Both the position numbers and the translations under genes were made by a program. Below are positions 8,513 to 46,822 of a stretch of DNA of 56,178 bases, piece after piece. The first letter of the stretch is position 1, and each line of letters starts with the position of its first letter. Source of the stretch: a virus (taxonomy: Duplodnaviria > Caudoviricetes); IMG/VR virus record IMGVR_UViG_3300043398_000200, positions 1 through 56,178 of that record; one strand, given 5' to 3'. The notes under the pieces are model-generated. The model was not told where the DNA came from, ran no database searches, and worked only from the letters and a program-made list of their open reading frames with translations.

Positions 8513-8530
8513 TCGAAAGCAGCATGGAAG

Positions 8531-8579: not shown

Positions 8580-8581
8580 TC

Positions 8582-11479: not shown

Positions 11480-11663
11480 ACCTGGCGTTGCTGCCACCGC
11501 TGTCCAGCGGGCGCTTGTGGTCCACGTCCTTGCCGTCGCCCTTGTGCGCGAGGCCAGCCTTGATCATGGCCGCCCGTGCACGGTTGCGTGCCATGCGGTG
11601 GCGCACCTGCTCAGGGCTGTTTTCGTACTCGGTGGCCCGTGTGTAATCCCGTGGTTTATTCAT
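11409..11663 (-). CDS. Small HNH endonuclease-like protein (84 aa)
   Basis: DGKDVDHKRPLDSGGSNARSNLRV...NR; starts at MNKPRDY, overlapping the end of the giant gene. Confidence 0.8.
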   Translation of the reverse strand: MNKPRDYTRATEYENSPEQVRHRMARNRARAAMIKAGLAHKGDGKDVDHKRPLDSGGSNARSNLRVRSVAANRGYRRDSKNHPI

Positions 11664-30282: not shown

Positions 30283-31266
30283 TCAGCCCCTGGCGATGAC
30301 CGCCCGGCCGATTGCCACGCCGTTCACGACGCGGTAACCGTACACCTGCAGGCCGCGCACGAGATTGGAGAAGCTGCGCTCGCTGCGCAGGGTCTCCATC
30401 TTGGTGAACTGCGACGCGAAGGTCAGAGCGGCCTTCGTGCCGAAGTACATCGTGCTCGTATCGACGGCGCTGTCCAGAGCGGGCAGCAGGTTCGACTGGT
30501 ACAGCGTGAACCGGTCGATCATGCCGAGCCGACCATTGCGCAGGATCGAGGAACCGTCACCCGTGAGGGAGGCGTTCTTCAGATCCGACTTCTTGATCAG
30601 CGCGCTGACCCACGGCGGAATGATCATCCACCGACCATTTTCCGGCAGGTTCTGCTCGTCGAGCACCTGGCCGGCATCCACGATGAAGTCCAGGACGGAC
30701 ATGTCGTTCGACGTGCTGTCGCCCGCTTCCGTGCCCTGGCCCACCTTGCTGATGTACAGCGGCGAGGCCGCCGTGCCCAGGCGGATCGTGGCGGACAGTG
30801 CACCGGCCGAGTTGCCACGGTTGGCGCTGTTCACGTCCGAGGTTGTACCCAGGTACGACAGGACCGCGGTATCGACCGCGATCTTCATCTGCTCGGCCGC
30901 ATCCTCGGCCCACATCGACATCATGTCGATGTCGGACTGGACATCCATCACATCGTCGAGTGCCAGGTTGAAGTACTTGGCCTGGTCGATCGTGAGATCG
31001 ATCTTCGTGCTCGACGGACGCTGAATGCTCAGGTCCTGGTCGGTGGTGTAGTCCGAGATCGTGATCGTCGGACGGACGCGGATGTGAACCGTGTCGCCCT
31101 TGTTCTTGATCTCACCCTCGTAGTCCGTGTTGGCAATGGCCGCGAGGACCGTCGCCGCGTAGAACTTTTCGAGCAGCTTCCCGGACCAGATCTCCGGGAT
31201 GAACTGGCCGGCGTAAGCCGGGCTGGGCGTTGAACCTGCCCACGGTGTACCAACTGGAAATGCCAT
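30283..31266 (-). CDS. Major capsid protein
   Basis: FIPEIWSGKLLEKFY..NTDYEGEI..GDTVHIR...RGLQVYG; strong codon bias; follows the scaffold gene. Confidence 0.92.
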   Translation of the reverse strand: MAFPVGTPWAGSTPSPAYAGQFIPEIWSGKLLEKFYAATVLAAIANTDYEGEIKNKGDTVHIRVRPTITISDYTTDQDLSIQRPSSTKIDLTIDQAKYFNLALDDVMDVQSDIDMMSMWAEDAAEQMKIAVDTAVLSYLGTTSDVNSANRGNSAGALSATIRLGTAASPLYISKVGQGTEAGDSTSNDMSVLDFIVDAGQVLDEQNLPENGRWMIIPPWVSALIKKSDLKNASLTGDGSSILRNGRLGMIDRFTLYQSNLLPALDSAVDTSTMYFGTKAALTFASQFTKMETLRSERSFSNLVRGLQVYGYRVVNGVAIGRAVIARG

Positions 31267-31298: not shown

Positions 31299-32396
31299 TT
31301 AGCGAACGCGTCCTTCACGCTGAGCCGCGAAGATGTCAGCTTCGAGCCGCTTGGCCTCGGTGCTGCCGGCCTTGATCTGCCCCGTGCGAACAGCGGAGTA
31401 GAACTGACCGATTTCCCCGCGGGTCCATACCCGCTTACCGGACCCTTCCTGAGCGCCAGCCGGGCCAGGCTTTGCGGTGCCTGGCGCGATGAAGCCTTCC
31501 AGCGTCTTCCCAGCAGCCGGCGCAGGGGCCGATGCGGGAGCGGGAGGGGGCGTCACTGCTGCGTGTTCGTTCTGGTATCCAAGAAAAAACGCCACGACGC
31601 GGGATGCTTCGTGGGCCTGATACGCTTCGGTCAGCAGGTCACCGCGCACCCTTCCGGTGTACGGGTCCCTCTGATCAAGCCACTGCAGGAACCCCTGATC
31701 AGTGTTCTGCTGCTGCCAGTTTGGGACAGCCTCAGAAAGCTCATCAAAGAAACGTCCTGCCGTATTGCGCTGCATTTCTTCCTTCGCCGCCTTAGCGTCG
31801 TTGGATGTCTGTGCAAGCTGCTTTGCCACCGGCTGCAGGCGACGATCAACCTCGCTCAGCACGCTGCCGTTTTCCTCACGGGCAACGCGACGAACTACGT
31901 CAATGAGGTCTGCTCCGAACTCCTGAACTTCCTCGTCCTTGACGAGGCGCTGCCCCTGTGGCGCGGGGGCGGGCTGTGCCGGTGCAGCGGGCTGCTGTGT
32001 ACCGAGCGAGGCCAGGAGTGCCTGGGTCGAGGTCAGCTGGCTCGTAAGCTGGCGGACCTGATCGATCAACTGGTTGGTCTGCGCCTGAAGGCGTGGAACT
32101 TCGGCGTTATATTTGCCCTGCAGAACCTTGTACCGCTGCTCGAAGTCGGGCGCGGGTGCCGGGGTAACATTCGCCGGCGGCGCGGGCGTCGGTTCTGGCG
32201 AAGGGGCGGGTGTCTCGGCGGGCGCGGGAGCGGCGGCGACAGGCTGCTCAACCGGTGTCTCGGCAGGCGCAGGAGCGGCGGCGACGGGCGCGTGCGGGTC
32301 CGGCTCAGGCGGTGTCGGGTCTTTCCCGTAGACCTCCTTGCTCAACTGGTTGGCCCGGTCAATCTGTGCCTGTACGGCTTTCGGCAATGCGCTCAT
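31299..32396 (-). CDS. Capsid scaffolding protein
   Basis: Pro/Ala-rich N-terminus, YKVLQGKYNAEVPRL coiled coil, C-terminal AQREGRVR; directly upstream of MCP. Confidence 0.8.
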   Translation of the reverse strand: MSALPKAVQAQIDRANQLSKEVYGKDPTPPEPDPHAPVAAAPAPAETPVEQPVAAAPAPAETPAPSPEPTPAPPANVTPAPAPDFEQRYKVLQGKYNAEVPRLQAQTNQLIDQVRQLTSQLTSTQALLASLGTQQPAAPAQPAPAPQGQRLVKDEEVQEFGADLIDVVRRVAREENGSVLSEVDRRLQPVAKQLAQTSNDAKAAKEEMQRNTAGRFFDELSEAVPNWQQQNTDQGFLQWLDQRDPYTGRVRGDLLTEAYQAHEASRVVAFFLGYQNEHAAVTPPPAPASAPAPAAGKTLEGFIAPGTAKPGPAGAQEGSGKRVWTRGEIGQFYSAVRTGQIKAGSTEAKRLEADIFAAQREGRVR

Positions 32397-32655: not shown

Positions 32656-32852
32656 GCGAAGGGGCGCAACCAACGCTGCTTGCGGGCCTTCACGTCGTCA
32701 GCGTCGTTGTCATCCACGACCGGTGCCGACTTGCCGTGATGCCCCGCCATGCGGTGCTCCACGGCTGCATGCCCCACCTGCACGTCTGCCACTCCAGCTG
32801 GGTTGGACAGCTTGTGCGACTTGACGACCTTGTTCCCCTTGCTGAGCATCAC
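32652..32852 (-). CDS. Hypothetical small protein
   Basis: Coupled to both neighbours. Confidence 0.5.
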   Translation of the reverse strand: MMLSKGNKVVKSHKLSNPAGVADVQVGHAAVEHRMAGHHGKSAPVVDDNDADDVKARKQRWLRPFA

Positions 32853-33073
32853 GCACCCGGTGCCGTGACATCGGCCGAGCGGCCGCCGTGGCCACCACTC
32901 ACGCCGCTGGTGCGGTTGGGCGGGATGTTGGTGTTGCCCTTGGTCGAGCCGAGAAACTTGCCACTGGGGCTGCCGCCGTGGCTCTCACCGCTGCCGCCGC
33001 CACCCTGGGACACGTTGGTGTTGCGGTCGGTGTTGCCCTTGGTTGGGCCGAGAAACTTGCCTGAAATACCCAT
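32849..33073 (-). CDS. Small Gly/Ser-rich protein with duplicated SGKFLGxTKGNT motif
   Basis: AGGAG RBS; 33-bp repeat at 32930-32962 and 33029-33061 (2 mismatches). Confidence 0.65.
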   Translation of the reverse strand: MGISGKFLGPTKGNTDRNTNVSQGGGGSGESHGGSPSGKFLGSTKGNTNIPPNRTSGVSGGHGGRSADVTAPGA

Positions 33074-33115: not shown

Positions 33116-33144
33116 AATATACTCGCGCTGTTTACAGTTTACAA
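33116..33144 (-). promoter_or_regulatory. Sigma70-like promoter for the scaffold/capsid operon
   Basis: TTGTAA-N17-TATATT on the minus strand. Confidence 0.55.
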
Positions 33145-33513
33145 ACCCATGCCGAGGCCAAAACTAGTCCGGTACCGGTCCACATAGCCGCCGGGGGGCT
33201 GCGAAGTGATCGTGAAGGCGTTGGAATCGGTATCCCCCGACCCGTTCGTGCCGGTCACAACGATACCTCCAAACACGCCAGTACTGGTCGGCGTACCCGA
33301 CAGAACGCCCGTACCAGTGTCAAAAGACACCCCTGTCGGCAGAGTGCCAGCAATCGAGTAGCTGGAGGCACTGGTGAAGTAGGCGCTGAAGTCTATCGGC
33401 GTCATGGCGACGTTGTAGGTCAGCGGCTGGTCCGGGATGGGGCCAGTAAAAGTCGGTGGTCCTACAACCGCCTCGCCGCCGGCGAACCCCAGGTTCATCA
33501 GAAAGGCGAGCAT
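33139..33513 (-). CDS. Putative Ig (He_PIG-like) domain protein ending in FGLGMGL
   Basis: YSIAGTLPTGVSFDTGTGVLSGTPT; TGATG coupling. Confidence 0.75.
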   Translation of the reverse strand: MLAFLMNLGFAGGEAVVGPPTFTGPIPDQPLTYNVAMTPIDFSAYFTSASSYSIAGTLPTGVSFDTGTGVLSGTPTSTGVFGGIVVTGTNGSGDTDSNAFTITSQPPGGYVDRYRTSFGLGMGL

Positions 33514-34214
33514 CAGGCACCGGCCCCGCACGCACCAGCTACGAACTCAGGGATGTAGATCGAAGGCTCTGCTTCGATCGTCGGAGAGCCATTGACGGTG
33601 AAGTCACGCCCGTTCCCGCTGTAGTCCGTGGCGGCCTGCGCTGCCGTCGTTGCGCCGCGGCCGCGCGCGTACACGTTGAGGCTGGCCCCTTTTACAATGC
33701 GCCGGCGGTACCGCTGCGCGTCGATCTCCGCGGCAGTCCAGACAGCATCGGAGACAATGATGTCCTGGTACCGGGCATCTGCCCACCACGAGTTGAGCGC
33801 TGAGATACTGCCGATATAGATGGCGGTCATGGATGTATCGCCAGCCTGCAGTGTGGTCTGCGCAGTGACAACGGACGAGGCGTCGTCACAATACGCCCAG
33901 CCCGCTGTAAGCTGGTTGGCTCCACTACCTGCGCACTGCAGATACCACTGAAACCATCGGCTGGTCGCTGGGCGGGACGCAAAATTTCCACTGGAGCCAG
34001 AACTCAGCAGCACCATCGTGCTACTGAAATCGCCATACGCTATGCGGGCACCGTAATCAACCGCATTGCTGGCTATATCGACCAACTGCTGCGACTCGCC
34101 AGTGCCACGATCCGAGACAATGTAGCTCTTGCCCAGGATCGTGAACGACGTAATGCTGGGCAGGTTGGCGGACCTGCTCAGATACTGGCCGTTGGCTGAA
34201 ACTCGAAGGCTCAC
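33513..34214 (-). CDS. ConA/LamG-like lectin domain virion protein
   Basis: Beta-rich; YIGS..WADARYQD..VWTAAEI and DYSGNGRD motifs. Confidence 0.7.
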   Translation of the reverse strand: MSLRVSANGQYLSRSANLPSITSFTILGKSYIVSDRGTGESQQLVDIASNAVDYGARIAYGDFSSTMVLLSSGSSGNFASRPATSRWFQWYLQCAGSGANQLTAGWAYCDDASSVVTAQTTLQAGDTSMTAIYIGSISALNSWWADARYQDIIVSDAVWTAAEIDAQRYRRRIVKGASLNVYARGRGATTAAQAATDYSGNGRDFTVNGSPTIEAEPSIYIPEFVAGACGAGA

Positions 34215-35975
34215 TCAGGCTCCGGTGTATCCCTGCAGGTTAATCAGCACGCCGGTAGACGCAGTTGTCGAAGACTCCTTGATATACAGCGCCGTGTTGG
34301 CGGTGGACTTCAGCGGGACGGGGAAAACAATGGTGGCTGCACCCAGTGGGCCGACGAAGCCACGGAACAGCGCCGTGCCGCCCGAACCGTCCGTAACAAG
34401 AAACTCCGTACCCGTCGTCGGGTGAGAGTTGAACACCTGCATGCTGGTAAGGTAGTTACGGATACCGGCACCAGCCGCGCCCTTGGCTGAGACTTCCGTC
34501 GTAGTGACGAGGCCAGCAGCAGGAGCCGCATAATTCCAGCTGTTGGCTTCCGATTCATAGGGCTGCGTGATCTGTTTACGGTTCAGCGTCATGCGCGCTG
34601 CGCCAGCATCTCCCTCGTCCACCGAGTCAGTCGAAGTATCGTCGGCAAGATACCCGACTACTGCAATCTTGCTGGTGGCTGGGGTGAATGCCGCATCATC
34701 AACCTGCACCCAGGTCCCGTTCTCCTGGACGACAAACGTGCCAGCATTGGTAACGGCGTGCGACGCGACAGTGACCGTGCCAGTGATGGCTACCTGACCA
34801 GTCGAGTCGTTGGCAATGGTGACACGCTGGACACCCGTACCTGACGCACCGTTGCCCATCGACGGAGCGACACCGTTGATCTGTGCAACATTGACCGCGC
34901 TGTTGGCAGTGATGGACACTGTACCGCTGACTGGCTGGGTGACGGCGGAACCGTCCACCTTTACAGCCGTCATTGATGCAATACCCTGGATGGTGATCAC
35001 ATCCGAGGATGCCGTGCCGGCCACACCGAGGGCGGGCTGCTTGGCAGCGGTGGACGCACCAGAGGGCAGGTCGGGCGTCGTCAGCAGCTTGTTGGTCAGG
35101 GCTGGCTGGTCCGTAGCCAGGACGACACGCAGTGTGCCAGCTGACTTGGTGCCTGAGTTGGTATCAACCGTAGTACCGTTGAGCTTGTCGATCTGTGCCG
35201 TGGTCCACAACCGACCAGCCGACATCTGCAGCATCGAGTAGTCAAGATCAGACCCCGCCGTGTCGGCCGGCGACGCACGCTGGACGGCCATCGCCGGGAC
35301 ACCCACGTCAGCGTCGGCGCTGGCCACATCCTCGGCCTTGGCAATGCTGGTCGCACCCGAAGCAATGGTGGCCTGCACGGCGAACGTGCCGGCGTTGGTG
35401 ACGGCGTGAGAGGGGACCGAGGCCAGGGACACAGGCTGTGTCACCGCCGACCCATCGACCTTCAGGGCGGTCATGGAGGCCGTACCCTGAACGGTGATCA
35501 CATCGGCTGAAGGGGTCCCCGCCACTCCAAGCGCCGGCTGCTTTGCTGCGGTGGCTGCACCAGATGGAAGTGGCAGGGACGCCACGCTCACAGGCTGAGT
35601 GACGGCGGAGCCATCCACCAGCACCGCCGTCATCGAGGCGATACCCTGGATGGTGATCACGTCAGCTGAAGCAGTACCAGCCACCCCCAGGGCGGGCTGC
35701 TTGGCGGCCGTGGACGCGCCCGAAGGAAGGGGCAGGGACACCACGCTGACTGGGTGCGTGACGGCAGAGCCATCAACCTTCACAGCCGTCGCATTGGCCC
35801 CAGTATTGGCCAGCGTGACCTGGAGCGGCGCGGCGGAACTGATGTCCGTGGCAGAACCGTCGGCACCCTGCTGGATCTTGACGCGCTGGACTTTTACCCC
35901 GCCACCGATGTCGTCCGTGGAAAGAACGTCCCCACTGCCGACCGTTACGCCGTTCAAAATCGTATTGTCAGACAT
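34215..35975 (-). CDS. Repetitive fibre protein (586 aa) with beta-sandwich tip
   Basis: 53-aa repeats (VDGSAVTQPVS..LPSGASTAAKQPALGVAGT..DVITIQG); Ser/Thr/Ala-rich. Confidence 0.75.
   Translation of the reverse strand: MSDNTILNGVTVGSGDVLSTDDIGGGVKVQRVKIQQGADGSATDISSAAPLQVTLANTGANATAVKVDGSAVTHPVSVVSLPLPSGASTAAKQPALGVAGTASADVITIQGIASMTAVLVDGSAVTQPVSVASLPLPSGAATAAKQPALGVAGTPSADVITVQGTASMTALKVDGSAVTQPVSLASVPSHAVTNAGTFAVQATIASGATSIAKAEDVASADADVGVPAMAVQRASPADTAGSDLDYSMLQMSAGRLWTTAQIDKLNGTTVDTNSGTKSAGTLRVVLATDQPALTNKLLTTPDLPSGASTAAKQPALGVAGTASSDVITIQGIASMTAVKVDGSAVTQPVSGTVSITANSAVNVAQINGVAPSMGNGASGTGVQRVTIANDSTGQVAITGTVTVASHAVTNAGTFVVQENGTWVQVDDAAFTPATSKIAVVGYLADDTSTDSVDEGDAGAARMTLNRKQITQPYESEANSWNYAAPAAGLVTTTEVSAKGAAGAGIRNYLTSMQVFNSHPTTGTEFLVTDGSGGTALFRGFVGPLGAATIVFPVPLKSTANTALYIKESSTTASTGVLINLQGYTGA
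35430..35790 (-). repeat. 159-bp period coding tandem repeat, with a further copy near 34930-35070
   Basis: Homologous positions at 35760, 35601 and 35442. Confidence 0.85.
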
Positions 35976-35991
35976 TTCAGATCCCCTATGC

Positions 35992-36330
35992 TCAGGCGTT
36001 CAGCCAGGCCAGCTCGTTGTTCCAGTAGGTGGTGTCTTCTTCCACACCACCGTCAACATCCGTGACATAGATGAACCCGCACCCCGCACCAAGGAAAAAA
36101 TCCATCACGTCGTGAAGGTTCGCCGCACTGACGCCGTTCACCAGGGCAGAGAACTTGCTGTTGGCGAAGTTGCTCATCCAGGCAGGCAACGTGGGGTATG
36201 TAGGTGAGCCATGCCCGTTGGGGATGTACTGCTCGTACATGACCATGATGTCCACGACATTGGCTATCTGCTGGTGATCGGACGCGGTGTCATACGTCCC
36301 GCCCTGATGGATTGCTACGATGGCTGCCAT
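35992..36330 (-). CDS. C-terminal half of a spherulin-4/GH135-like domain
   Basis: DIMVMYE, PAWM...KFSALV, GCGFIYVTD, YWNNEL match the spherulin-4 C-terminal pattern. Confidence 0.65.
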   Translation of the reverse strand: MAAIVAIHQGGTYDTASDHQQIANVVDIMVMYEQYIPNGHGSPTYPTLPAWMSNFANSKFSALVNGVSAANLHDVMDFFLGAGCGFIYVTDVDGGVEEDTTYWNNELAWLNA

Positions 36331-36334
36331 ATGC

Positions 36335-39300
36335 TTACCCGTTGAATACTTTCACGACTACATGGCCACGCATTGAGCCAATCAGAATTGACTGTCCTGC
36401 GGGGACCAGGGTGCCAGGACCGACAATGCGAACATCAATCGGATAGGTGACATGCCGCGCCGGATTGCCCTCCGGGTTCCACCGTGCAAAGCCATAGTCA
36501 AACTCACGCATGTAGGTCCCATCCGCCTGCGGCGAGGAATGCTGCGACTCGGTACGCGCCTTACCGAGGTAATGCCGGCCTGCGTCCACGTTCGGATATG
36601 TATAGGGGATGCCAGTAGCGCGGTTAACTGAGAACTCCGGGTGCCACACGAAATCATCGGGCTTGTAGTTCTCGAAACCTCCAATGGGGCCAGCATAGCC
36701 TTCCTGGTACCCATAACCAGGGCGTGACATGTGGACACAGCCACCACGCTTACTGGCGAAGCACAGATATGCCGCGAACCAGTACATGCTGCCTTCCCCA
36801 GGGGGGCTATACTGGCCAGTGTAACCGTTCACGTCCATGAGCGCCTGGCGCCCATCAGCCATGATCGTGTTGAACGAGGCCAGCATGTACGGTCCGTGCG
36901 TCTGGTCGTTGAAGCACTTGAATGAACTCGGCGCACCTATCCAGTTGCCGCCGCGACAGGAAATGTCGATGCGCTCCGCGTAGGTTCCATCAGAAGCACC
37001 AGACAGGCGCGGCGGGTTGGTGTACCAGTCAATAGTTCCGAAGTTGCCAGTCCAGCTGGTGCCATTGTTCCACGCCATCTTCCCGGTGATGGCGCGAGTC
37101 TGTGCAAGCAGATCCCTACAGCCGCTCGACAGCGTGTCATTCACCTTGACGTTGATGTCCCCCTGAGCCACATCCGCAGGCCAGCCACCATGATGGTCGG
37201 CATACTCCTGCTGGCTATACCCACTGCGCAGATTCGCCTGCAGGTCGTCATAGAACGTGGCGTCGTACACGTCCATGAAGTTAACGCCCATATTGGAGTT
37301 AGGGGCCTTGCCAGTGGAGTTGAGATCCAGTACCCCCTTCTGCCACTTTGCAATGAACGTGCTGGCGGTTTCTCCAACCCCCGCGCCGCTGGTCCCAGTC
37401 GTTCCGCCTGGAAATGGCGGGTATACATAGACAGTATAAGCTGGATTGCCATTCTCCAACTCAAGGACATAGTTAGAACCGTTGGTCGTCGCAAGCCAGT
37501 GGTTATTACTGAGAACCCTCAACACATCCGTCTCGAACTGGTTGCCGCCAGCCGTGTTGTACCGGGGGAAGCTGAAGTCCCAAGTGTAGTGGGCAAGCTT
37601 CAGTGAGGGGTTCACTGCCTTCACTGCAAGGAAGTCCGCGTGAATATCATTGTTGCTGAAGTCCGTCGCAAAACTCGACACAACTGCCATGTCGATGTGC
37701 TTCAGGAACTCGAAGAAGGTGCCGTTGTTAGGCCCCAACTGCCAGTGGTTCCGACCGTAGGTGCCTTCATACAGACCGATGGCCATTGCGCCGATGCGCG
37801 GGAATAACTCAGTGGTGTCACCACTGCCGGAAACCCTCAACGCAACCAGACCGTCACCTTCGGGTAGCGTGTAGCTCCCACCAATGGCCCCGTTATTGAT
37901 GGCCGCATCACCAATGAGCGCACTGTTGTGTGTCAACCGCTGGAAATCGGTGAGGTCGATTACCTTCGCCCCATTCCCCCTCGGGTTCAGCCACGCACGT
38001 CCGCTCACAAAGTCACGGTGCAGCACTCCATTACCAAGTCGTGAAGCAGTCTGGAACCCTTCCAGCGCACTACCAAGCCATCCAGCGCGGTTGATCGCAC
38101 CACCGTACATCTCATCGTAAAACTGGTTGGCGGGTGGGCCAGCACTTGTCGTCGTGCCAAAATACCCAGGCCCCATCAACACAACACACTGCGCATAACG
38201 TGCTTCACGCAGGTTTCCAGATGTCGGCAAGTCGCGGGCATCGACTTTCAATGGGCGATCCGCGGCGGTCAGCGAAGCGTCTACCGCCCACTTGTAGCGC
38301 GCCAGGAAAGTCAGCGTACCGTCAGTCGCCTCCGACCCGTTTGGCCCAAGGCCGTTTTCGAGCATGGCGAAGTCAGCCATGTTCATCAGGTGTGTCCAGT
38401 TATTCGGGTCCGGCGCACCGTTGTTCCAGGTCGCGTACCCGTTGCAGCCCCAGCCCTTGTTGGGGTTGATCGTCCGGCCGTAAGTAAACCAATCGGACTC
38501 TCCTGCCCTGAAGTCGGCCTGAGTCCACGCCCCTCCAGTCGGGTTGTAGTCATAAGTCTGACTGTAGTAAGTACCAGGGTTGGTGTACGAGAACACGTTG
38601 TCGCAGAGAAAGTAATCTATCGACGTTGCTTTCGAGGCGGCGGGGTCTGCGCCGCCGCCGGTGATGTAGCAACGATTGGTTGCAAAGGCCGCGTACTGGT
38701 ACGGCCACAGCCCACCATACTGCCCTACGAAATGCGTCGGGTTGATCAGCCAAAAGTTTGGAATATCCCACCCGGATATTACATGGGTACCACTGCGCCC
38801 CACCTGCCACAGGTCCCAGTTGGCCGCGACGACAGCGTTCTTCCAGTCCTGAACATAGGCCCCACCATCGGCCCGCCGCTCGTTGAAGTTCCCGTACTGA
38901 ACGATCTTGGTACCAACGAGAGATCGAGACTTGATATCGTCGTAAGCCTGCTGGCGCGTCATCCCCTCGCCGTTGGGGTATGCAGCAGGGTAGTTCCCTC
39001 CAATCTCAATGATGTGAAACTTCGCCGCAATCGCCCGCTGCGTGGCGTCCGGGACCTGGTTTGTCCCAGTAAAGCCGCCAGCGATGCGCGGATATGGGTG
39101 GTTGAGGCCGGGGAAAGTGGTCGAGGTCGGCGGCGGCGTAGGCGACGGAGTCGTGCCACCCTGCTTGGAGCGCACGTAGGCCGTCATCTCGGTCCAGTGC
39201 TGCACCCAGGTCAGGTCCTCTGGCATGTTGGGGCGGCCCTGGCCGCCCTGACCAAAGAAAATGCCGTCGATGTTTGGAAACGCGTTGTACCACGCATCGA

Positions 39301-41917
39301 TTCGCGTCTTCAGCTGCGCGCGGGTCAGCATCTGATATGGGATTGTCCCGGTCACATCCAGTGACGTGACGTGCCCAAGGACCTTGATACCCCGTATATG
39401 GCACTGGTCAATATGTGCCTGCAGCTGCGGGTTGGGGTTGGAGTAGCTGTCGTAGTAGTAGTTGTCCGCATCGAAAATGCAAAACACCACACTTCCAGCT
39501 GGCATCTGGTAGATCTGCGCCCACTGCGCAGCATTGTTCGTGGGGAAGCGGAAGATGATCTTGTTGGACGGCTGTGAGATAGGTGGGTCGAGGGTCACAC
39601 CTGTCACTGCTGCACTCTGCGCAGACTCGTTCACCGGGTCGGCCTGGTCAAATGCCGACACCCGATAACTGTGCACTTCACCCGCCGCCATGCCTGTCAC
39701 ATCGTAAGTGGTACTGGTTGTCGTGGCGAGGTAAGAACCATCCTTGAACACCTTGTATCCACCCACCCCAGTGCCTGCATCCGACGAAGCACTCCACTGC
39801 AGTCGAGTCGCAGACTGGCTCAGGGCCTGTGCAGACAGGTTGGTGGGTACCGTGGGGGCCGTCAGGTCGGCAGTCTCACCACCCTGAATGATTTCCAGGG
39901 CACACAGCAGGCCATTATCCGAAGTACCAATGAGCCGCAGGTGCAGGCTGCCAGTACTGATGTGGTGGGTGTACGACTTCTTGAGTGTCGCATTGCTGCC
40001 GACCACCCCGCCAATATCAACACCCGTCTCCTTGACGGTGCCGTTCATCTCAACATTAAACACGCGATGCCCAGCAGTCCCAAACACCGGGTCGGCAAAG
40101 TACAGATTGATGGTGTAGGTGTCGTCAGCAGGCACCGCTGCATCGACAACCAGCGTAGGGATGTCCCATCGACTGGTCTGATAGAGCGGCTGCCTGGCGG
40201 CGTCCGAGCCGGTAATCGTTGCACCACTGTCATTGACGTAGGATGTGGGGGAGAGAACCCCCGTATCCGCCAACCAATTCAAACCGCCTGGGTCAGTGTA
40301 AGTCGGGCCACCAATGTTCACCCTGAAGGTGAACGGATCGCCGCTACTGGTCAAGGCCGGCAGGGTGAACGTACGGACGGCACTTTCATCCGACGAAAAT
40401 CCTGCGTGGTCGGTAGCTACGGTCGTGATGCTGAAGTTCTCTCGCTCCGCCCCGACATCGTAGTAGGACACGTCGGTGGCCAGTGTGAGCGCATACCCAG
40501 TGTAGGTACCCTGACCGTTGTAGGCCATGCGACAGGCCAGCACGTCCGTACTGAAAGGAAGCTCGGCCGTGGCACACGACACCCATGTCGGAGAACTTGG
40601 ATTGGTGGCGTAAAAGACCTCGAACCGGGTCAATGCCACGCGCACGATCTTGAGCGCACAGGCTACAGCAACGGACAAATCCGCAAGCAGCTGCGGGGTA
40701 CTGTTGTTGGTCAGGCGGGCATAGACCCGCAGCTTATTGATGCTGCCTGCGGTCGTCGTATGCAGGGCTGCAATGAAGGCCGCACCACGATCCGCCGAAT
40801 TACGGACCTCAATGCCAATAGCCCCATTGTTGGCGTCGATGCTGGACGTAACCGCAGTGACGTTGATCTGCTGCGAAAAATCTCCGCGGACAAAGCGGCC
40901 GCGCAAGTACACAGTATCCTGCGTGCCGAAATGACTCCCGCCAGTGGTCATGGCGATTGTCGAACCACTGTCCGACCCCTGCGCGCCGCCGAGGTTGTAG
41001 TCTGCCTCCGCAGTCAGTACCACCGGCTCGGGCATATCCCCAAGAGCCGCGCCGAAATTGCGGAAGGCGTAGGAACTGGTCCCCGACACCGCTTCTCCAC
41101 CACCCGGAGTAGCATCTGCGACGCGCGGCTGCTGCACGAGCCAGCCAAGGGGGCTGCCCCAGGTAGCGACCTTTATCAGCCCTGTAGGCTGCGGTGGCGC
41201 ATGCTGATCGACCGTACCGGTCCCAGGAACGGTCACAGCAATAGCGGCGGTCCTGTCAGAGCGCAATCCTACAGCGTCAACAGCATATGCCTGATAGAGG
41301 ACGGCGTGGTCCGTAGTCTGCACTGCCCCCGGATCGTCAAGCGGAAACCCAGGCGTCGAAAGCTCAGCAAGAACAGACGAGTCGCTGGGATTGATCCGCT
41401 CAACGACATAACCAACCACCGAAACATTGTCGATGGACCCACGCGACGTGATGTGCGGAACCCCTCCAACGATGGCGACAGCAAAATCAGCCGGCTTGGT
41501 TGGTTTCTCCGTGTCTGTAGGAACAGGTGGAGTGTCGTCTGCACCTGGGCCATACAGGTAGGTGTAGTAATTAGCAATGCTTGCGGGAATGAACCCGCAG
41601 GCCACAGTAACCTGCGCATCATCTGCCGGCGTCATGTATCGCGCCAGGCGCGTGCGACGCGAATAGTTGTCTGCGATTGCACGAATGCTGGCCAGCCCCA
41701 GTGTCACTGTGCTGCCAATGGCCTCACCATCCGGCCCAAAAATCAGCCGCATCTGCTCGGTCACATCTGAAAGGCCAAGCTTTGCATCCTGCGCACGCAG
41801 GTAATCCCGATCCTCGTCGGTCAGAAACCGCTTCAGTCGGCCACGGGCGGCCAACCCAAGCATGTACGTACGAAGTTCCTCGTACGCTACAACGATTGGA
41901 TCATCTGCGTGTGCCAT
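36335..41917 (-). CDS. Giant multidomain carbohydrate-binding/hydrolase virion protein (~1860 aa): FN3, lectin, malectin, FN3, spherulin-4 N-half, two GHL15-like glycoside hydrolase modules
   Basis: Start at MAHADD by TGATG coupling; malectin FRVNIGG..LYQTSRW..LYFAD..RVFNV; FN3 APTVPTNL..LQWSAS..GYKVF; GIKVLGHV..IDGIFF; two R(D/E)F..G....NP.GN ends. Confidence 0.8.
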   Translation of the reverse strand: MAHADDPIVVAYEELRTYMLGLAARGRLKRFLTDEDRDYLRAQDAKLGLSDVTEQMRLIFGPDGEAIGSTVTLGLASIRAIADNYSRRTRLARYMTPADDAQVTVACGFIPASIANYYTYLYGPGADDTPPVPTDTEKPTKPADFAVAIVGGVPHITSRGSIDNVSVVGYVVERINPSDSSVLAELSTPGFPLDDPGAVQTTDHAVLYQAYAVDAVGLRSDRTAAIAVTVPGTGTVDQHAPPQPTGLIKVATWGSPLGWLVQQPRVADATPGGGEAVSGTSSYAFRNFGAALGDMPEPVVLTAEADYNLGGAQGSDSGSTIAMTTGGSHFGTQDTVYLRGRFVRGDFSQQINVTAVTSSIDANNGAIGIEVRNSADRGAAFIAALHTTTAGSINKLRVYARLTNNSTPQLLADLSVAVACALKIVRVALTRFEVFYATNPSSPTWVSCATAELPFSTDVLACRMAYNGQGTYTGYALTLATDVSYYDVGAERENFSITTVATDHAGFSSDESAVRTFTLPALTSSGDPFTFRVNIGGPTYTDPGGLNWLADTGVLSPTSYVNDSGATITGSDAARQPLYQTSRWDIPTLVVDAAVPADDTYTINLYFADPVFGTAGHRVFNVEMNGTVKETGVDIGGVVGSNATLKKSYTHHISTGSLHLRLIGTSDNGLLCALEIIQGGETADLTAPTVPTNLSAQALSQSATRLQWSASSDAGTGVGGYKVFKDGSYLATTTSTTYDVTGMAAGEVHSYRVSAFDQADPVNESAQSAAVTGVTLDPPISQPSNKIIFRFPTNNAAQWAQIYQMPAGSVVFCIFDADNYYYDSYSNPNPQLQAHIDQCHIRGIKVLGHVTSLDVTGTIPYQMLTRAQLKTRIDAWYNAFPNIDGIFFGQGGQGRPNMPEDLTWVQHWTEMTAYVRSKQGGTTPSPTPPPTSTTFPGLNHPYPRIAGGFTGTNQVPDATQRAIAAKFHIIEIGGNYPAAYPNGEGMTRQQAYDDIKSRSLVGTKIVQYGNFNERRADGGAYVQDWKNAVVAANWDLWQVGRSGTHVISGWDIPNFWLINPTHFVGQYGGLWPYQYAAFATNRCYITGGGADPAASKATSIDYFLCDNVFSYTNPGTYYSQTYDYNPTGGAWTQADFRAGESDWFTYGRTINPNKGWGCNGYATWNNGAPDPNNWTHLMNMADFAMLENGLGPNGSEATDGTLTFLARYKWAVDASLTAADRPLKVDARDLPTSGNLREARYAQCVVLMGPGYFGTTTSAGPPANQFYDEMYGGAINRAGWLGSALEGFQTASRLGNGVLHRDFVSGRAWLNPRGNGAKVIDLTDFQRLTHNSALIGDAAINNGAIGGSYTLPEGDGLVALRVSGSGDTTELFPRIGAMAIGLYEGTYGRNHWQLGPNNGTFFEFLKHIDMAVVSSFATDFSNNDIHADFLAVKAVNPSLKLAHYTWDFSFPRYNTAGGNQFETDVLRVLSNNHWLATTNGSNYVLELENGNPAYTVYVYPPFPGGTTGTSGAGVGETASTFIAKWQKGVLDLNSTGKAPNSNMGVNFMDVYDATFYDDLQANLRSGYSQQEYADHHGGWPADVAQGDINVKVNDTLSSGCRDLLAQTRAITGKMAWNNGTSWTGNFGTIDWYTNPPRLSGASDGTYAERIDISCRGGNWIGAPSSFKCFNDQTHGPYMLASFNTIMADGRQALMDVNGYTGQYSPPGEGSMYWFAAYLCFASKRGGCVHMSRPGYGYQEGYAGPIGGFENYKPDDFVWHPEFSVNRATGIPYTYPNVDAGRHYLGKARTESQHSSPQADGTYMREFDYGFARWNPEGNPARHVTYPIDVRIVGPGTLVPAGQSILIGSMRGHVVVKVFNG

Positions 41918-42207
41918 CAGAACAACCCGATCATGTTGACTGCCGTCGTGACCGAACTCCACACCCGCCGCACACGGCAGGGGACGAAGCCGCCGGTGGG
42001 GATGATGAAGGTCACAGGCTCGGCGTCGTCATTGCCCGCAGGAGTCACCTTGACGTTCCCCCCCGTGCCGACGAACACAAACTGATCCTTGTTCTCACCG
42101 TTGTTGTTGGTGAGATCCACCGAGTCGCTCGGGCTGATCGCCTTTGCGCACATGGGGAACCCCGTGACGAAGAAGGGTCCTGGGGTCTCGTTTGCTTCTA
42201 TCGCCAT
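41917..42207 (-). CDS. Head-spike base protein (RcGTA Rcc01079-like)
   Basis: AISPSDSVDL..VFVGTGGNVKV..VTF..PTGGFVPCRVRRVWSSVTTA..IGL pattern. Confidence 0.7.
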   Translation of the reverse strand: MAIEANETPGPFFVTGFPMCAKAISPSDSVDLTNNNGENKDQFVFVGTGGNVKVTPAGNDDAEPVTFIIPTGGFVPCRVRRVWSSVTTAVNMIGLF

Positions 42208-42212
42208 GCGCC

Positions 42213-42380
42213 CTACTCCGTTTTCCTGGCGAAGCGCACCGATGCCGCCCGCGCCCTCAAGATGTTTTCCTGGACCTGCCTGACACGCGTCGGCTCATCG
42301 ATTGCCTTCTGCGCCGCGTCTACCGCCTCACGCTGGTCAATGGCCTGTCGCCGCTGACTGACTGTTGACTCAAATTTCAT
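42213..42380 (-). CDS. Small hypothetical protein (55 aa, not in ORF track)
   Basis: MKFESTVSQRRQAIDQRE...; ATGA overlap with the upstream stop; fills the gap. Confidence 0.6.
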   Translation of the reverse strand: MKFESTVSQRRQAIDQREAVDAAQKAIDEPTRVRQVQENILRARAASVRFARKTE

Positions 42381-42637
42381 CGCCGCCTCGTGGCCGCGTT
42401 GGTTGCCGGGTTGTAGTCGAAGTCGGCGGGCTTTCTGCGAGTCGCCCGCGCCGCGCGGTCCTTCGCCCGTTCCGCCGCCGTCATCCGATCCCGTGCCCGA
42501 CCAGTGGCCGTCAACTCACCTTTGGCGTTCATATGGCCACGCTTCTTCAGGAGGGCAATGGCCTCATCCCGTGACCCAACCTGGGCAGTGAGCCGGCTCA
42601 CCAGCTGGTGCCGCCCCATGAACTGCTGGGTCGTCAT
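42377..42637 (-). CDS. Small basic hypothetical protein
   Basis: ATGA coupling to portal. Confidence 0.65.
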   Translation of the reverse strand: MTTQQFMGRHQLVSRLTAQVGSRDEAIALLKKRGHMNAKGELTATGRARDRMTAAERAKDRAARATRRKPADFDYNPATNAATRRR

Positions 42638-44844
42638 CCCCCGGCCCTCATGCCTGGCCGCCCAGTAGCATTATTGGACATCTGCCCTTCCTGCGACTGG
42701 CGAACCTGCTCCGCAGGTGCACGCGCGTTCTGCGGAGAAGGCACCTGACTGCCCTGCTGGCCGGGGGGCATCGGCCCGCCCGGACCACCTGGGATCCCGC
42801 CCTGAGCCTGCAGCAAAGCCAACTGCTGCTGTTGTGCCTGCAACGCCTTCAGCTGCTCGTCGTCCGGCACGATCTGCTCGTGGTCGAGACCGAGGTTGGT
42901 CGCCACGCTGCGCAGGACGTTGGCCCGCCCCTCCATACCGACGATCTGCATATCGATTGGGTTACCGGTCAGCTGCAGGAATTCCAGCTGGCGCATGCGG
43001 TCCTGCTCGCGCTTCACGGCGTAGTTCACACCCTTGACGACGATGTTCTCATCACCGCGGAACATGCCGGGCATGGTCAGCATCACCATGTTGTACAACT
43101 GCTGCAGCAGCGGCCGCCACACGTCACGGTCAATGCTGGCCGCTACGTTCTGCAGCGACTTGGACGCGTTGCCCATCAGCATCGCCAGGCCGGACGCAGT
43201 ACGCCCCGCACCGCCCACACGCTCGTTGCCAGTCATGTAGCGAGGGATGGCGCTCACTTCATCAGCCATCAACGAGAACTTCTCGTAGATGCCAAGCAGC
43301 TCCGCCGCATTGGAGTTGGGCTGGAAGAAATCAATCGGTTTGGCTGTGCCGGTGAGCATCGGATCGAAGCTGACGTGCCACCGCTTCCACGGGTACATGT
43401 CATCACCCATACCAGGGTCGGCCAGGACCTGATCGTTGATCACTACCTGCGGGCCGGACGAAATCGAGATGTTGTTCACCAGTGCACGGACAGTCGCATT
43501 GCTTACCGACTGCACGTCATCGAGCAGGTCATACAGGCCGTAACCCGCAAGGCCGCCGGGGACCTTCTCGAAATTGCTGATGTAGTACGGAACGCGCTGG
43601 TCAGGGGACGGGTTGACCTGAACCTTGATGACGAAGCGGTCAATCAACCATGCCTGAACCTTGTACTCCTGCAGGGGGTCGGGAACTTCCTCTGCCGTCA
43701 TGCCCCACTGCAGGAGCATGGACCCCTGCACAGAGCCGTGGAACTCCGCGGTGTCAATCAGGTTGGACGACGTGCTGGGCCACTGCTCGCGCATCTCCAG
43801 ACGGGACCGCTCGGTGTCGGTCGTATCCCACCAGTCGCGGAAGCCGTTGTCGGGGAACCGCTCCAGTACCTGATCAATCTGGTCGTCGCGGTAGCCAGGC
43901 AGGCCCTTGACCGCCAGCAGGTCCGCGCGCGAAAGGCGCAGACGCTCAACAATCTCGGCCTCATGGATGTTGGCTGCAGACGGCGACCAGTACAGATCGA
44001 ACGGTGACACGCGGTACCAGAACATGGTCGGTATCTGCGCCATCACCGGCTGCTGGTTCTGCCACGTCAGCTGGTTCTTCTTGCGGACGACCGGCCCCTT
44101 GATGCATGCAAAAGGGAAGATCGGCAGGTCGATGAGGAACTCCGCGAACGCGTCATACGCGCCGCCCTGGACCAGGATGTCGTCGAGCTTGTCGCCCGAC
44201 CGTACCGCTTCCTGGACCGCCTTGTCCTTCGCCGCGCGCTCGGCTGCCTTGCGCAGCCCGTTCACACGGTCCTGGATCATCTGCGGGTCGATCTGTTGCC
44301 CCGCCTGCTGGAGCGTGGCGATCTCGGTTTTCACCAAGTCGTCCACGCTTTTCATCACGTCATCAGGAATGTCGGGAACAGGCGTTGGGTCGATGTCCCA
44401 CGGGCGCTCGGCCGAGAGATATACGTCACGCAGCAATGCCGTCGCGCCGCGGCACTTCGTCGCCGTCACGCGGGCGTAGACCTCGGAGCCACCGAACTGT
44501 TTGATGGCCTGCAGCTGCGTGGCTGAATACTGGCCCTTGTAGGTGCGGAGTGCATCGAGCAACCGCTGGGCTATGCCCTGCGTGTTCCGAAAATTCCGCA
44601 TTTCCTCCATGCGCCGGCGGATGTGCGCCGCAAGCTCGGAAGCCACGGCATCTTGCCGCTGAGCCTCGTTATCGGCTTCAATGCGCGCAGCATCCTCAGC
44701 ATCCAGCTGGTCATTCCCGACAACGCGGAGCAGCCCTCTGTCGGGTGGCGGACCAGGGGGGGCGGCTGTTGCGGGAGACGGGGAAGCTGGGGGCGGAGGA
44801 AGCCCTGAATTCGGATCAGGTGGCAGGGCGGCAGGGATTGCCAA
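42634..44844 (-). CDS. Portal protein
   Basis: 736 aa; RVSPFDLYW, RALVNN..SSGPQ, RTASGLAMLM, Gln/Pro-rich tail; TTG start with AGGAGA RBS. Confidence 0.88.
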   Translation of the reverse strand: MAIPAALPPDPNSGLPPPPASPSPATAAPPGPPPDRGLLRVVGNDQLDAEDAARIEADNEAQRQDAVASELAAHIRRRMEEMRNFRNTQGIAQRLLDALRTYKGQYSATQLQAIKQFGGSEVYARVTATKCRGATALLRDVYLSAERPWDIDPTPVPDIPDDVMKSVDDLVKTEIATLQQAGQQIDPQMIQDRVNGLRKAAERAAKDKAVQEAVRSGDKLDDILVQGGAYDAFAEFLIDLPIFPFACIKGPVVRKKNQLTWQNQQPVMAQIPTMFWYRVSPFDLYWSPSAANIHEAEIVERLRLSRADLLAVKGLPGYRDDQIDQVLERFPDNGFRDWWDTTDTERSRLEMREQWPSTSSNLIDTAEFHGSVQGSMLLQWGMTAEEVPDPLQEYKVQAWLIDRFVIKVQVNPSPDQRVPYYISNFEKVPGGLAGYGLYDLLDDVQSVSNATVRALVNNISISSGPQVVINDQVLADPGMGDDMYPWKRWHVSFDPMLTGTAKPIDFFQPNSNAAELLGIYEKFSLMADEVSAIPRYMTGNERVGGAGRTASGLAMLMGNASKSLQNVAASIDRDVWRPLLQQLYNMVMLTMPGMFRGDENIVVKGVNYAVKREQDRMRQLEFLQLTGNPIDMQIVGMEGRANVLRSVATNLGLDHEQIVPDDEQLKALQAQQQQLALLQAQGGIPGGPGGPMPPGQQGSQVPSPQNARAPAEQVRQSQEGQMSNNATGRPGMRAGG

Positions 44845-44924: not shown

Positions 44925-45425
44925 ATGAGTGCTCAGGGAACCCTGAAGACTTCATCCGATCAGGCCATCGCCCCCCTGGGGGTAGACCTGCAAATATCCG
45001 CGCTCAGCGCCCATATTGCAACCGAACTGGCAGCGGGGCTGTCAGACGTTCCCGCCATCCGTGAGCGGTATGGAATCACCGAAATCCAGTGGGACTCCCT
45101 CAAGAAAAACCCGGTGTTCCGCCAGATGGTGGCCGAGGCGATCAAGTCCCTGCGGGGCGACCTGAACGCCGGTGCCCGCATCCAGAAAAAGGCCGACATC
45201 ATTCTGGAAGATGCCCTGCCGGCCTACGACCGCATGGTCCACGACCCCACCATCCCCGCCCAGTCCCGCATCGACGCCGGCAAGCTGCTGGCCCAGCTGG
45301 CCGGGCGCGCAGCCAAGAATGACGGTATCGCGGTACCCGGTAGCGGCTTCGTCCTCAACATCAACCTGGGTGGTGCCAACAAGGGCGTCACCATCGAGAA
45401 CGCAGCCATCACGGACGTACCGTGA
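44925..45425 (+). CDS. Terminase small subunit (putative)
   Basis: Helical protein with C-terminal FVLNINLG strand; GTGA-coupled to TerL. Confidence 0.75.
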   Translation: MSAQGTLKTSSDQAIAPLGVDLQISALSAHIATELAAGLSDVPAIRERYGITEIQWDSLKKNPVFRQMVAEAIKSLRGDLNAGARIQKKADIILEDALPAYDRMVHDPTIPAQSRIDAGKLLAQLAGRAAKNDGIAVPGSGFVLNINLGGANKGVTIENAAITDVP

Positions 45426-46822
45426 GCGAGATCACATACGACGCGCCGGCCACGGTCGCGGCGATGATGATGAGCGACGCGCTGGTGCGCGTACTCACCG
45501 GCCCGGTGGGCAGTGGCAAGACAACCGGCATGGTCATGGAGTGCGCGCGGCGCATGGCCCAGGAGAAGCCGGACCACAACAAGATCCGCAAGACCCGCGT
45601 CGCCATCGTCCGCAACACGAACCAGCAGCTGCGCCAGACCGTCATGCCTGAAATCGAAAAATGGCTGATGCCTGCTTTTCGCTACAAGGTCACGGACAGC
45701 ACGCTGCAGTTCGACTTCCCGCTGCCTGACGGCACGCGCGTGCAGAGCGACTGGATGTTGATCCCGCTGGACACGCCCCGCGACGTGCAGCGCCTGCTGT
45801 CGCTGAACCTGAGCTTCGCATGGGTTTCGGAATTCCGCGAAGTACCAATCGAGATCATCGAAGCTCTGCTCGGCCGCGTTGGCAGGTACCGCTCACTGGG
45901 GGTGGATGAGTCCACCTTCTACGGCGTGATGATGGAATCCAACATGCCGGACGAGGACTCGGCCTGGTACCAGAAGCTGGAAGTTGAACTGCCGAAGGAC
46001 TGGCGCATGTTCAAGCAGCCCAGCGGTCTGGACCCACTGGCCGAGAACGTGGAGAACCTGCGCAAGGGCTACTACCAGGACCTGATTGCAAACAACACTG
46101 AGGACTGGTCCGACGTGTATGTCCGCGCGCAGTACGGCAAGAGCCTTGCTGGCCAGGCCGTGTTCCGCACCAGCTTCAAGCCTGATTACCACGTCGTACA
46201 CGAAACGCTGAAGCCCAACCCGCACCTGCCGTTGATGGTGGGTCAGGACTTTGGCCGCACGCCGGCCAGCCTCATTGGACAGATCGACTCCCGCGGCAGG
46301 CTGGTGGTCTTCCGCGAGATCACATCCGTTGGAACAGGCATCGAGCAATTTGCGATCACGCAGCTGCGCCCGGTAATGTTCAACACCTACGCCGGAATGT
46401 CGTCATTCATGATCGGTGATCCCGCCGGCCGCGAAAAATCACAGGTCGGTGAGGAGTCCCCGTTTGACTGCCTCAAGCGCCTGGGCTTCATGATCTATCC
46501 CGCGCCCACCAACGACATCGAGCCGCGCCTGCGTGCCGTCGAGCAGATGTTGCTGCGTCAGTCAGACGGTGGACCGATGGTGCTGATCGACGCCGCCAAT
46601 TGCCCCACACTCGTGACGGCAATGAAGTCGAAGTACCGCTACAAGCGCAAGCTCAACGACGAACTGGACGAGAAGCCTGACAAGGCACACCCGTGGTCAG
46701 ATGTCGCGGACTGCCTGCAGTACATGTGCCTGGGTGTTACCGGCAACTACATGGCCAAGGTGATGCGGGACTCACGGGCGCGCGTACGCAGACCCCCAGT
46801 GCCCGTGGCGGGATGGACCTAA
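45422..46822 (+). CDS. terL: Terminase large subunit
   Basis: Walker A GPVGSGKT, AIVRNT, Walker B AWVSE, nuclease GQDFG, DPAG, SDVADCLQY. Confidence 0.92.
   Translation: MSEITYDAPATVAAMMMSDALVRVLTGPVGSGKTTGMVMECARRMAQEKPDHNKIRKTRVAIVRNTNQQLRQTVMPEIEKWLMPAFRYKVTDSTLQFDFPLPDGTRVQSDWMLIPLDTPRDVQRLLSLNLSFAWVSEFREVPIEIIEALLGRVGRYRSLGVDESTFYGVMMESNMPDEDSAWYQKLEVELPKDWRMFKQPSGLDPLAENVENLRKGYYQDLIANNTEDWSDVYVRAQYGKSLAGQAVFRTSFKPDYHVVHETLKPNPHLPLMVGQDFGRTPASLIGQIDSRGRLVVFREITSVGTGIEQFAITQLRPVMFNTYAGMSSFMIGDPAGREKSQVGEESPFDCLKRLGFMIYPAPTNDIEPRLRAVEQMLLRQSDGGPMVLIDAANCPTLVTAMKSKYRYKRKLNDELDEKPDKAHPWSDVADCLQYMCLGVTGNYMAKVMRDSRARVRRPPVPVAGWT

Follow-up and report, generated by a model that had tools for sequence, protein, structure and literature searches.

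A candidate capsid-vertex appendage cassette with a spike base and a putative C-terminal docking tail in an uncultured podovirus

Background

What might some 9 kb of genes, placed between the portal and the scaffold and capsid genes, do for a short-tailed phage whose tail fibres are encoded elsewhere? The question is raised by the viral record IMGVR_UViG_3300043398_000200, the whole of which (56,178 bases, estimated to be 93% complete; hereafter the window) was analyzed, and which belongs to an uncultured podovirus related to HMO-2011 and the Rhizobium RHph_TM3-like phages. An earlier note, made from the letters of the window alone, described six genes at this site (a spike-base-like protein, an 1860-aa lectin/hydrolase, a split-barrel partner, a repeat fibre, a LamG-like lectin and an immunoglobulin-like (Ig) protein) as a modular head-spike system. 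Here we compare the block with sequence families, solved structures and related viral loci. Judged by its sequence, the first gene encodes a genuine spike base, and the tail at the C-terminus of the Ig protein accompanies this base in every related cassette that was found. As to whether the entire block is an accessory capsid-vertex appendage cassette of a podovirus already owning tail fibres, we consider the balance to be even.

Head spikes of this kind are known from one solved particle, the gene transfer agent of Rhodobacter capsulatus (RcGTA), and from a few annotated phages, in which the bases are mostly labelled 'tail fiber protein'. According to the structural description, eleven spikes sit on RcGTA pentons, each composed of an Rcc01079 pentamer and one Rcc01080, and residues 2-10 of Rcc01080 (IALGLGLGL) form a five-point star that fills five hydrophobic pockets (PMC7296036). 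The docking peptide that the earlier note gave for the RcGTA fibre, N-terminal and of GLGLGL type, is therefore correct.

A spike base of the Rcc01079 family

The 96-aa product of the first cassette gene matches the NCBIfam model NF048002 (RCAP_Rcc01079 family) over residues 22-95 with 45.4 bits against a cut-off of 28 (E 7.6e-12); when genomes were searched with this model, the window scored 43.9 bits and none of the 14 control genomes matched. Used as a single sequence against PDB, the protein retrieves chain h of 8cjz, 'Spike Base Protein', at E 4e-5 and does not reach 6tb9 at E<=1. A profile built from the base and 51 relatives (A1) matches both 8cjz_h (E 8.2e-18) and 6tb9_E3, 'Head spike base Rcc01079' (E 1.5e-14). 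At E<=1e-3 the base has 249 relatives among 1.84 billion representatives, nearly all of them 80-110 aa long. A word-index homologue search returned only the query itself, and a search of viral loci with the window base sequence alone returned no locus. The similarity to Rcc01079 that had been predicted is borne out by these matches, and by sequence the 96-aa protein is a genuine member of the spike base family.

The best solved relative of the window base is chain h of 8cjz. The neighbouring code 8CK1 is cited for the adaptor protein of Carin-1, a marine podovirus (PMC13730344), and 8cjz may come from this virus as well; a podovirus spike base may therefore already have been solved. The annotation 'tail fiber protein' is attached to many of the base homologues in isolates, as has been noted for phage homologues before (PMC5026251), and an unannotated 81-aa open reading frame (ORF) at the record end of Ralstonia phage RSJ5 (L002, 7968-8213) is a further spike-base homologue.

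A C-terminal tail that accompanies the base

The cassette lies immediately upstream of the gene for p84, a small Gly-rich protein of ~74 aa with two invariant KF(L/I)GxTKGN motifs in its alignment, which in the relatives that carry it is encoded between portal and scaffold. We fetched 80 viral loci (numbered with the prefix L) with the scaffold protein, one of which (L026) contains a base, and a metagenome scan with p84 added 44 further loci, seven with a base; a six-frame check gave the same eight base loci in all. The p84 gene is present in 9 of the 80 scaffold-related loci (L020-L028) and in 43 of the 44 loci fetched with its own alignment, and the 86-aa protein encoded upstream of the cassette is likewise kept in relatives. 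In Rhizobium phage RHph_TM3_14A the order is portal, three small ORFs, scaffold and capsid.

Complete portal-to-p84 intervals were available in 32 cases, at least three pairs of which look duplicated across collections (L020/L128, L021/L134, L119/L120). Twenty-eight of them span 73-984 bp and encode neither base nor tail, and the other four (L026, L126, L131, L136) span 3.3-4.9 kb and each contain a base. These four are exactly the ones that encode a protein ending in YR..LGxGΦ, where Φ is hydrophobic; the tails of the set read ...PWYRLGLGF, ...RRWYRLGTGF, ...RLWYRLGLGV and ...KYRRLGLGVGR. A fifth relative, L150, has a base together with the tail ...RLWYRLGLGV, and L151 appears to repeat L131, judged from the listed gene ends. 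Base and C-terminal tail are thus paired in all six cassettes, that of the window included.

The carriers of the tail are otherwise unlike one another: the 124-aa Ig protein of the window, one protein of 648 aa and proteins of GG..F.G repeats (101, 105 and 281 aa). Across the window, L131, L126, L026 and L136 the final ~17 residues nevertheless align, with LG.G invariant. In five of the cassettes the base opens the gene order and the tailed protein closes it; the exception is L136, where the tailed gene stands directly before the base. The cargo between base and tailed protein varies from cassette to cassette. By the comparison of intervals, the block is an accessory insertion. Because all six base cassettes carry a homologous tail on otherwise differing proteins, the comparison makes a C-terminal anchor a well-supported hypothesis, in which the conserved tail of the Ig protein probably plugs into the base; for the docking of this particular pair we put the chances slightly above even. 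In the open-access literature searched, no publication describing either such cassettes or a docking tail at the C-terminus was found. Three more distant relatives (L037, L048, L074) with larger portal-to-scaffold gaps were considered as cassettes and rejected: what the gaps hold is a basic protein of 450-500 aa, rich in Ala and Lys, and a zinc-ribbon protein with four cysteines.

The tail carrier of the window matches the Ig family He_PIG (PF05345) with 37 bits against a cut-off of 24, over residues 31-109 of the 130-aa ORF, in agreement with its first description, and translation bears out the two termini given there, MLAFLMNLGF at the start and FGLGMGL at the end. A scan of all ORFs in the window for alternating hydrophobic residues at their ends singled out this protein, with five such residues at its start and four at its end, as the sole coding-frame ORF with both, the remaining matches lying in frames that overlap annotated genes. 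The N-terminal register equals that of I2, L4, L6, L8 and L10 in the RcGTA peptide but is without glycine spacers, and with A, L, N and G in the spacer positions the segment is not a star peptide of the Rcc01080 type. It is not kept in the sister tail-bearing proteins. Homologues of the Ig protein in L004-L007 share the Ig domain only, L006 excepted, where the N-terminal peptide is kept as MLLALQLNNLL. An outer-membrane β-signal or signal peptide at the Ig termini was considered and discarded, the N-terminus having, by eye, no charged n-region. A complex prediction with four base copies and the Ig protein gave a score of 0.00, that is 'no answer', which is evidence neither way.

Polarity compared with known base-partner pairs

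The window resembles RcGTA in three respects: the base belongs to the same family, both by a curated hidden Markov model and by profile comparison with the solved chain; a partner carries a terminal peptide alternating between hydrophobic residues and glycine; and the appendage is predicted to bind carbohydrate. It differs in that the peptide stands at the C-terminus, whereas that of Rcc01080 occupies residues 2-10, and in that the podovirus capsid protein is of the Phage_capsid_4 / P22-like kind whereas the RcGTA head is HK97-type. Rcc01080 was not among the chains retrieved from PDB with the cassette proteins, in searches none of which was aimed at it.

In other phages the peptide tends to lie where it does in RcGTA. 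The gene directly after the base begins with an alternating hydrophobic/small peptide in five of the seven isolates checked: Verrucomicrobia phage P8625 (gp23/gp24, MIGLGLDLSL), Rhodobacter phage RcapNL (gp29/gp30, MGLGLGIGLGL), Flavobacterium phages immuto (MYIGLGISL) and elemo (MFISIANAIGV), and ctsTn925 (MLAGLSLGMGI). In RHph_Y25 and RcWhiteOak the gene after the base has no such N-terminal peptide. Among viral contigs, L011, L018 and L019 start the post-base gene in this way and L012-L017 (three of them, L015-L017, a single phage type) do not; in L106, L153 and L154 that gene begins MVMAFGWGFGF. The usual form is therefore an N-terminal star peptide on the gene adjoining the base. The isolate pairs of P8625, RcapNL, elemo and immuto share with the window a base homologue, usually annotated 'tail fiber protein', which is directly followed by a lectin-like or fibre protein; they differ in having an N-terminal peptide and adjacent genes, whereas in the clade of the window the peptide is C-terminal and cargo genes lie between. 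In one relative (L106 / L153, ~7634-10803) the base and its N-terminal-star partner are placed upstream of the terminase rather than after the portal, and adjoin genes of 475 and 236 aa.

Tails where no base was found

Several observations weigh against a dedicated pairing of tail and base, or against the wider reading of the block. Four Gly-spaced hydrophobic residues are present in the tail of the window, compared with five in the RcGTA peptide. Nor does the Ig gene adjoin that of the base, being found 8 kb further downstream, beyond four cargo genes. The 1860-aa, 112-aa and 233-aa proteins have no homologue in any sister cassette, and for the 1860-aa protein none was found in any of the related loci. 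Two sister cassettes, L126 and L131, carry proteins of the family PF23140, and the Gp80 chain fibres of this family in phage GP4 start at the tail (PMC13730344).

Tails of similar make also occur in loci in which no base was found, on both strands of the up to 20 kb seen of contigs of up to 62 kb. Six such relatives (L105, L108, L109, L112, L118, L122) carry, after p84, an ORF of 79-84 aa ending in VVGLGL[FY], the protein end as a whole reading KARAERYG.D.D...VVGLGL[FY]. A 229-aa protein of L006 ends in ...SLGLLGVGR. In the podovirus MW202554 (L009), of which 19 kb were read, a post-portal ConA-like protein ends in ...LLLGVGP and a pectate-lyase-like protein in ...KGLGLF, one of the tailed proteins being 263 aa long; and in L048 and L099 a 207-aa protein with such a tail follows the capsid gene. 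The tailed proteins of MW202554, like those of the base-bearing L136, begin with signal-peptide-like segments. Because similar tails are found in loci with no base in the fetched DNA, the base may not be their sole receptor, although a base elsewhere in these contigs is possible. The earlier proposal that the anchor sits at the other end of the partner draws its chief support from the comparison of cassettes.

A rival reading raised by these tails is that the C-terminal ΦGΦGΦ sequence has nothing to do with the base, being instead a short β-strand or glycine zipper that binds another ring, such as penton or portal, or serves folding or sorting, its co-occurrence with the base reflecting shared descent. 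Apart from the loci without a detected base, this explanation is favoured by the frequency of the motif, which is present in 20 of the 8346 stop-to-stop ORFs (>=80 aa) of the fetched loci, several of them in structural modules, and by the signal-like N-termini of some carriers. Outer-membrane β-signals end in F, as some of the tails do. We nevertheless find it fairly improbable: tail and base occur together in all six cassettes at the site, on otherwise unrelated proteins; such a peptide has a direct structural precedent in the base family (PMC7296036); the carriers of 101-124 aa have, by eye, no signal peptide; and the base-less records were seen in part. A β-signal reading of the tails was itself rejected, since several tails have no aromatic end and the small carriers no signal peptide.

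Two further features of these loci may be recorded. Base-bearing L153 has a version of the 79-84-aa protein that ends ...KARAERYAGIFY, without the GLGLF extension. Stretches of L136 (4975-9367) and MW202554 (7948-13448) encode post-portal lectin, Ig and β-helix proteins with signal-like starts and LG.G-type ends, an arrangement that is odd for virion proteins.

Cargo proteins and where they may be carried

The largest cassette protein contains a malectin domain (PF11721, 64.3 bits against a cut-off of 23, E 1.8e-17; PDB malectins at E 1e-6 to 5e-6), followed by a fibronectin type III domain that stays below the Pfam cut-off (PF00041, 20.9 bits against 25, E 4e-4) and matches the FnIII domain of chitinase A1, PDB 1k85, at E 1.6e-8. 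By ESM Atlas features (0.94) its C-terminal 1070 aa resemble glycoside-hydrolase-like proteins, 29 of 30 matches carrying PF14885 (GHL15), with no support for this region from Pfam (E<=5), NCBIfam or the word index. Of the earlier description as a lectin/hydrolase, the lectin part is confirmed by the malectin match, and the hydrolase part is a lead from a language-model search. Residues 780-1130 have no Pfam match at E<=5, a word-index search with residues 785-1345 found nothing, and AlphaFold2 without an alignment gave a predicted local distance difference test (pLDDT) value of 36 for residues 785-945.

The 112-aa protein, described earlier as a split-barrel partner, resembles the C-terminal part of Spherulin-4 (PF12138). 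By ESM Atlas features (0.96, 212 of 256 shared) 19 of 30 matches are Spherulin4, and its residues 1-112 align to the Spherulin4 parts of five clusters with template modelling (TM) scores of 0.73-0.78, predicted models standing on both sides and the structure search advising that no family be named from the score of an aligned part. No Pfam match (E<=5) or PDB sequence match was obtained for this protein, and a word-index search for it among longer proteins was empty. The likeness to Spherulin-4 and GHL barrels is one of language-model features, both for this protein and for the last 1070 aa of the giant one, and in the case of the 112-aa protein one of predicted structure too. Neither protein reaches a Pfam score for these families; for the split barrel in particular, the C-terminal likeness stands and neither half has a Pfam score. 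Unlike in Spherulin-4, the two parts of the barrel would come from separate chains, one from an internal segment of the 1860-aa protein and the other from the 112-aa protein. Some clusters matched by the 112-aa protein are named phage tail proteins.

The repeat fibre is what it had been called: Tandem Repeats Finder (TRF) reports a 159-nt period with 2.3 copies in its gene, and three copies of the repeat core lie at residues 90, 143 and 310 of the protein. It has a homologue just after the portal in podovirus MW202554 and another in L006, where an Ig-protein homologue with the similar N-terminal peptide follows directly. This neighbourhood is the sole hint that the fibre and the Ig protein work together. 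The LamG-like label given to the 233-aa protein is not confirmed: the protein has no match in Pfam, PHROGs, NCBIfam or PDB and no similarity to the ConA-like protein of MW202554 (BLASTP E 0.11); AlphaFold2 without an alignment gave pLDDT 33.

From these cargo proteins a simpler arrangement can be drawn up, in which base and Ig protein alone make up a small head spike. The other products (the enzyme and its 112-aa partner, the fibre, and the 233-aa protein) would be receptor-binding or depolymerase proteins carried on the tail, or soluble enzymes set free at lysis, and would share nothing but the cassette with the spike. Depolymerases and fibres are normally tail proteins, an example being the tail-spike Dpo31 of Carin-1 (PMC13317679); the giant protein has no alternating peptide at its N- or C-terminus, and the RcGTA base pentamer, in the published account, takes one peptide only (PMC7296036). 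In MW202554, too, the fibre homologue and genes for the ConA-like and pectate-lyase-like proteins come after the portal, and the 19 kb that were read contain no base. We still think this arrangement somewhat unlikely: the stop codon of the base gene and the start codon of the giant gene overlap, in a block that is closely packed throughout; base and block come and go together; tail fibres of the phage's own are encoded beside its adaptor and nozzle genes; and family searches recognized no tail-fibre N-terminal anchor on the giant protein.

Chain-like fibres suggest yet another role for the base. In GP4-type podophages, Gp80 dimers are strung by β-augmentation on a rope protein, and in GP4 this rope, which emerges from the tail, reaches the capsid and docks there (PMC13730344); by analogy, the appendages of the cassettes might be rooted in tail or neck, the base being a landing pad for their far end. 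In keeping with this, sister cassettes L126 and L131 contain proteins matching PF23140, 'Podophage GP4 fiber I protein gp80' (E 1e-8 and 4.9e-17), along with tailed, rope-like proteins of GG..F.G repeats, and the N-terminal segment of the Ig protein of the window aligns loosely with the first rope unit. No cassette protein of the window, however, matches PF23140, and its tailed protein has an Ig domain, not a repeat array; GP4 was not among the base homologues turned up, its genome not having been checked directly. The known ropes of GP4, VP1 and A1002, for their part, are rooted in the tail nozzle, and the available text of their description mentions no base or C-terminal LGLG tail (PMC13730344). 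We regard a landing pad as highly improbable.

A proposed arrangement and its implications

Returning to the vertex appendage, we propose the following arrangement by analogy with RcGTA. Five base subunits would sit on each capsid penton, and one extended peptide of alternating hydrophobic residues and glycines would run across the five hydrophobic base pockets; this peptide would be the C-terminus of the partner, so that the chain direction would be opposite to that of the RcGTA fibre. The Ig protein might hold the repeat fibre by its N-terminal peptide, which is conserved in another phage where the two are neighbours too; this step is more tentative, and we put it below even. Together with the 112-aa half-barrel, which would complete it in trans, the malectin/FN3/GH-like protein of 1860 aa could be the enzyme by which the appendage binds and cuts polysaccharide; that it is carried on the head seems doubtful. 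Of the earlier interpretation as a whole, the base homology and the RcGTA peptide have been substantiated, the C-terminal anchor is favoured by the comparison of cassettes, and a branched head-borne enzyme complex with the Ig protein as its adaptor is an inference.

In its boldest form, the proposal would make the tail G.VD..YR..LGxGΦ a portable plug for interchangeable vertex cargo, which here would be Ig adaptor, fibre and a ~200-kDa enzyme with its barrel completed in trans, together amounting to a head-borne depolymerase, and in some cassettes would include rope-and-dimer chain fibres; taken as a whole, we rate this as rather unlikely. Were such a swappable vertex cassette of reversed polarity real, it would provide a simple sequence rule for recognizing head-borne host-binding proteins in metagenomic phages. 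The docking chain would have the polarity opposite to that of the only solved example, and the one-to-five symmetry-mismatch docking would tolerate either chain direction. The degradation of capsule or extracellular polysaccharide (EPS) would possibly be borne by the capsid rather than the tail, which would matter to the question of how phages get through layers of polysaccharide and to the prediction of receptor-binding proteins, and the tail would be a candidate tag for cargo display on capsids.

Gene layout of the window

The features are collected in Table 1. The placement of the six genes between portal and scaffold/capsid, as first described, agrees with ORFs and gene calls, and so does their translational coupling: TGATG stop/start overlaps join base to giant gene and 233-aa to Ig gene, the fibre and 233-aa genes abut as TGAGTG, and the remaining spacers measure 4, 5 and 16 nt. 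The earlier observation is in sum partly confirmed, in all genes and termini, with the LamG label unconfirmed and the hydrolase a lead. A frameshift fusing base and giant protein, such as was once proposed for rcc01079/80 (PMC5026251), was considered and set aside, there being by eye no obvious slippery heptamer in the 45-nt overlap.

Table 1. Coordinates of the cassette and of neighbouring features in the window
Feature	Position	Strand	Basis
Portal, SU10-type	42634-44844	-	ORF and family match
Pair of small genes (86 aa, 55 aa) separating portal and cassette; upstream insertion border	42213-42637	-	ORFs
Spike base protein, 96 aa, Rcc01079 family by sequence; first cassette gene	41917-42207	-	NCBIfam, PDB, profile
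Giant multidomain, predicted carbohydrate-active protein, 1860 aa from ATG; ATG overlaps base stop	36335-41917	-	translation, Pfam
Malectin domain, giant residues ~530-669	39911-40330	-	PF11721
Fibronectin type III domain, giant residues ~691-760	39638-39847	-	PF00041
Candidate N-terminal Spherulin-4-like half-barrel, giant residues ~790-940	39098-39550	-	sequence reading only
GHL15-like (glycoside-hydrolase-like TIM barrel) C-terminal region	36338-39085	-	ESM Atlas features
112-aa protein like C-terminal part of Spherulin-4 (PF12138)	35992-36330	-	features and predicted structure
Repeat fibre, 586 aa; 53-aa repeats (DNA 35430-35790) and C-terminal domain	34215-35975	-	TRF
233-aa protein, no fold assigned	33513-34214	-	no family match
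Ig (He_PIG) protein, 124 aa; last cassette gene; ATG overlaps stop of 233-aa gene	33139-33513	-	Pfam
N-terminal hydrophobic peptide MLAFLMNLGF of Ig protein, hydrophobic at 2, 4, 6, 8, 10	33484-33513	-	translation
Putative C-terminal anchor module GGYVDRYRTSFGLGMGL of Ig protein, last 17 residues	33142-33192	-	alignment with sister tails
p84, small Gly-rich protein; downstream insertion border	32849-33073	-	alignment
Scaffold	31299-32396	-	
Capsid	30283-31266	-	
Adaptor	29228-29863	-	

The structural genes and the whole cassette are read from the minus strand. In its capsid protein the window shares 52.8% identity with Rhizobium phage RHph_TM3_14A and ~30% with the HMO-2011, Pelagibacter and Roseobacter CRP podoviruses. 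The structural set further includes two fibres, one of 363 aa whose N-terminal part is T7-like and one of 505 aa with a Peptidase_S74 domain (PF13884, 'Chaperone of endosialidase'), as well as an internal-virion/nozzle-like protein and an M15 endolysin, the tail fibres lying apart from the cassette, beside the adaptor and nozzle genes. A 2906-aa DarB-like virion protein (11656-20376, minus strand) matches phrog_10089 and phrog_37402 in its C-terminal part, and has a weak LPD39 match and a short N-terminal match to the N4-type virion RNA polymerase PHROG 2206. The large terminase gene (45422-46822) lies on the opposite, plus strand and diverges from the portal gene.

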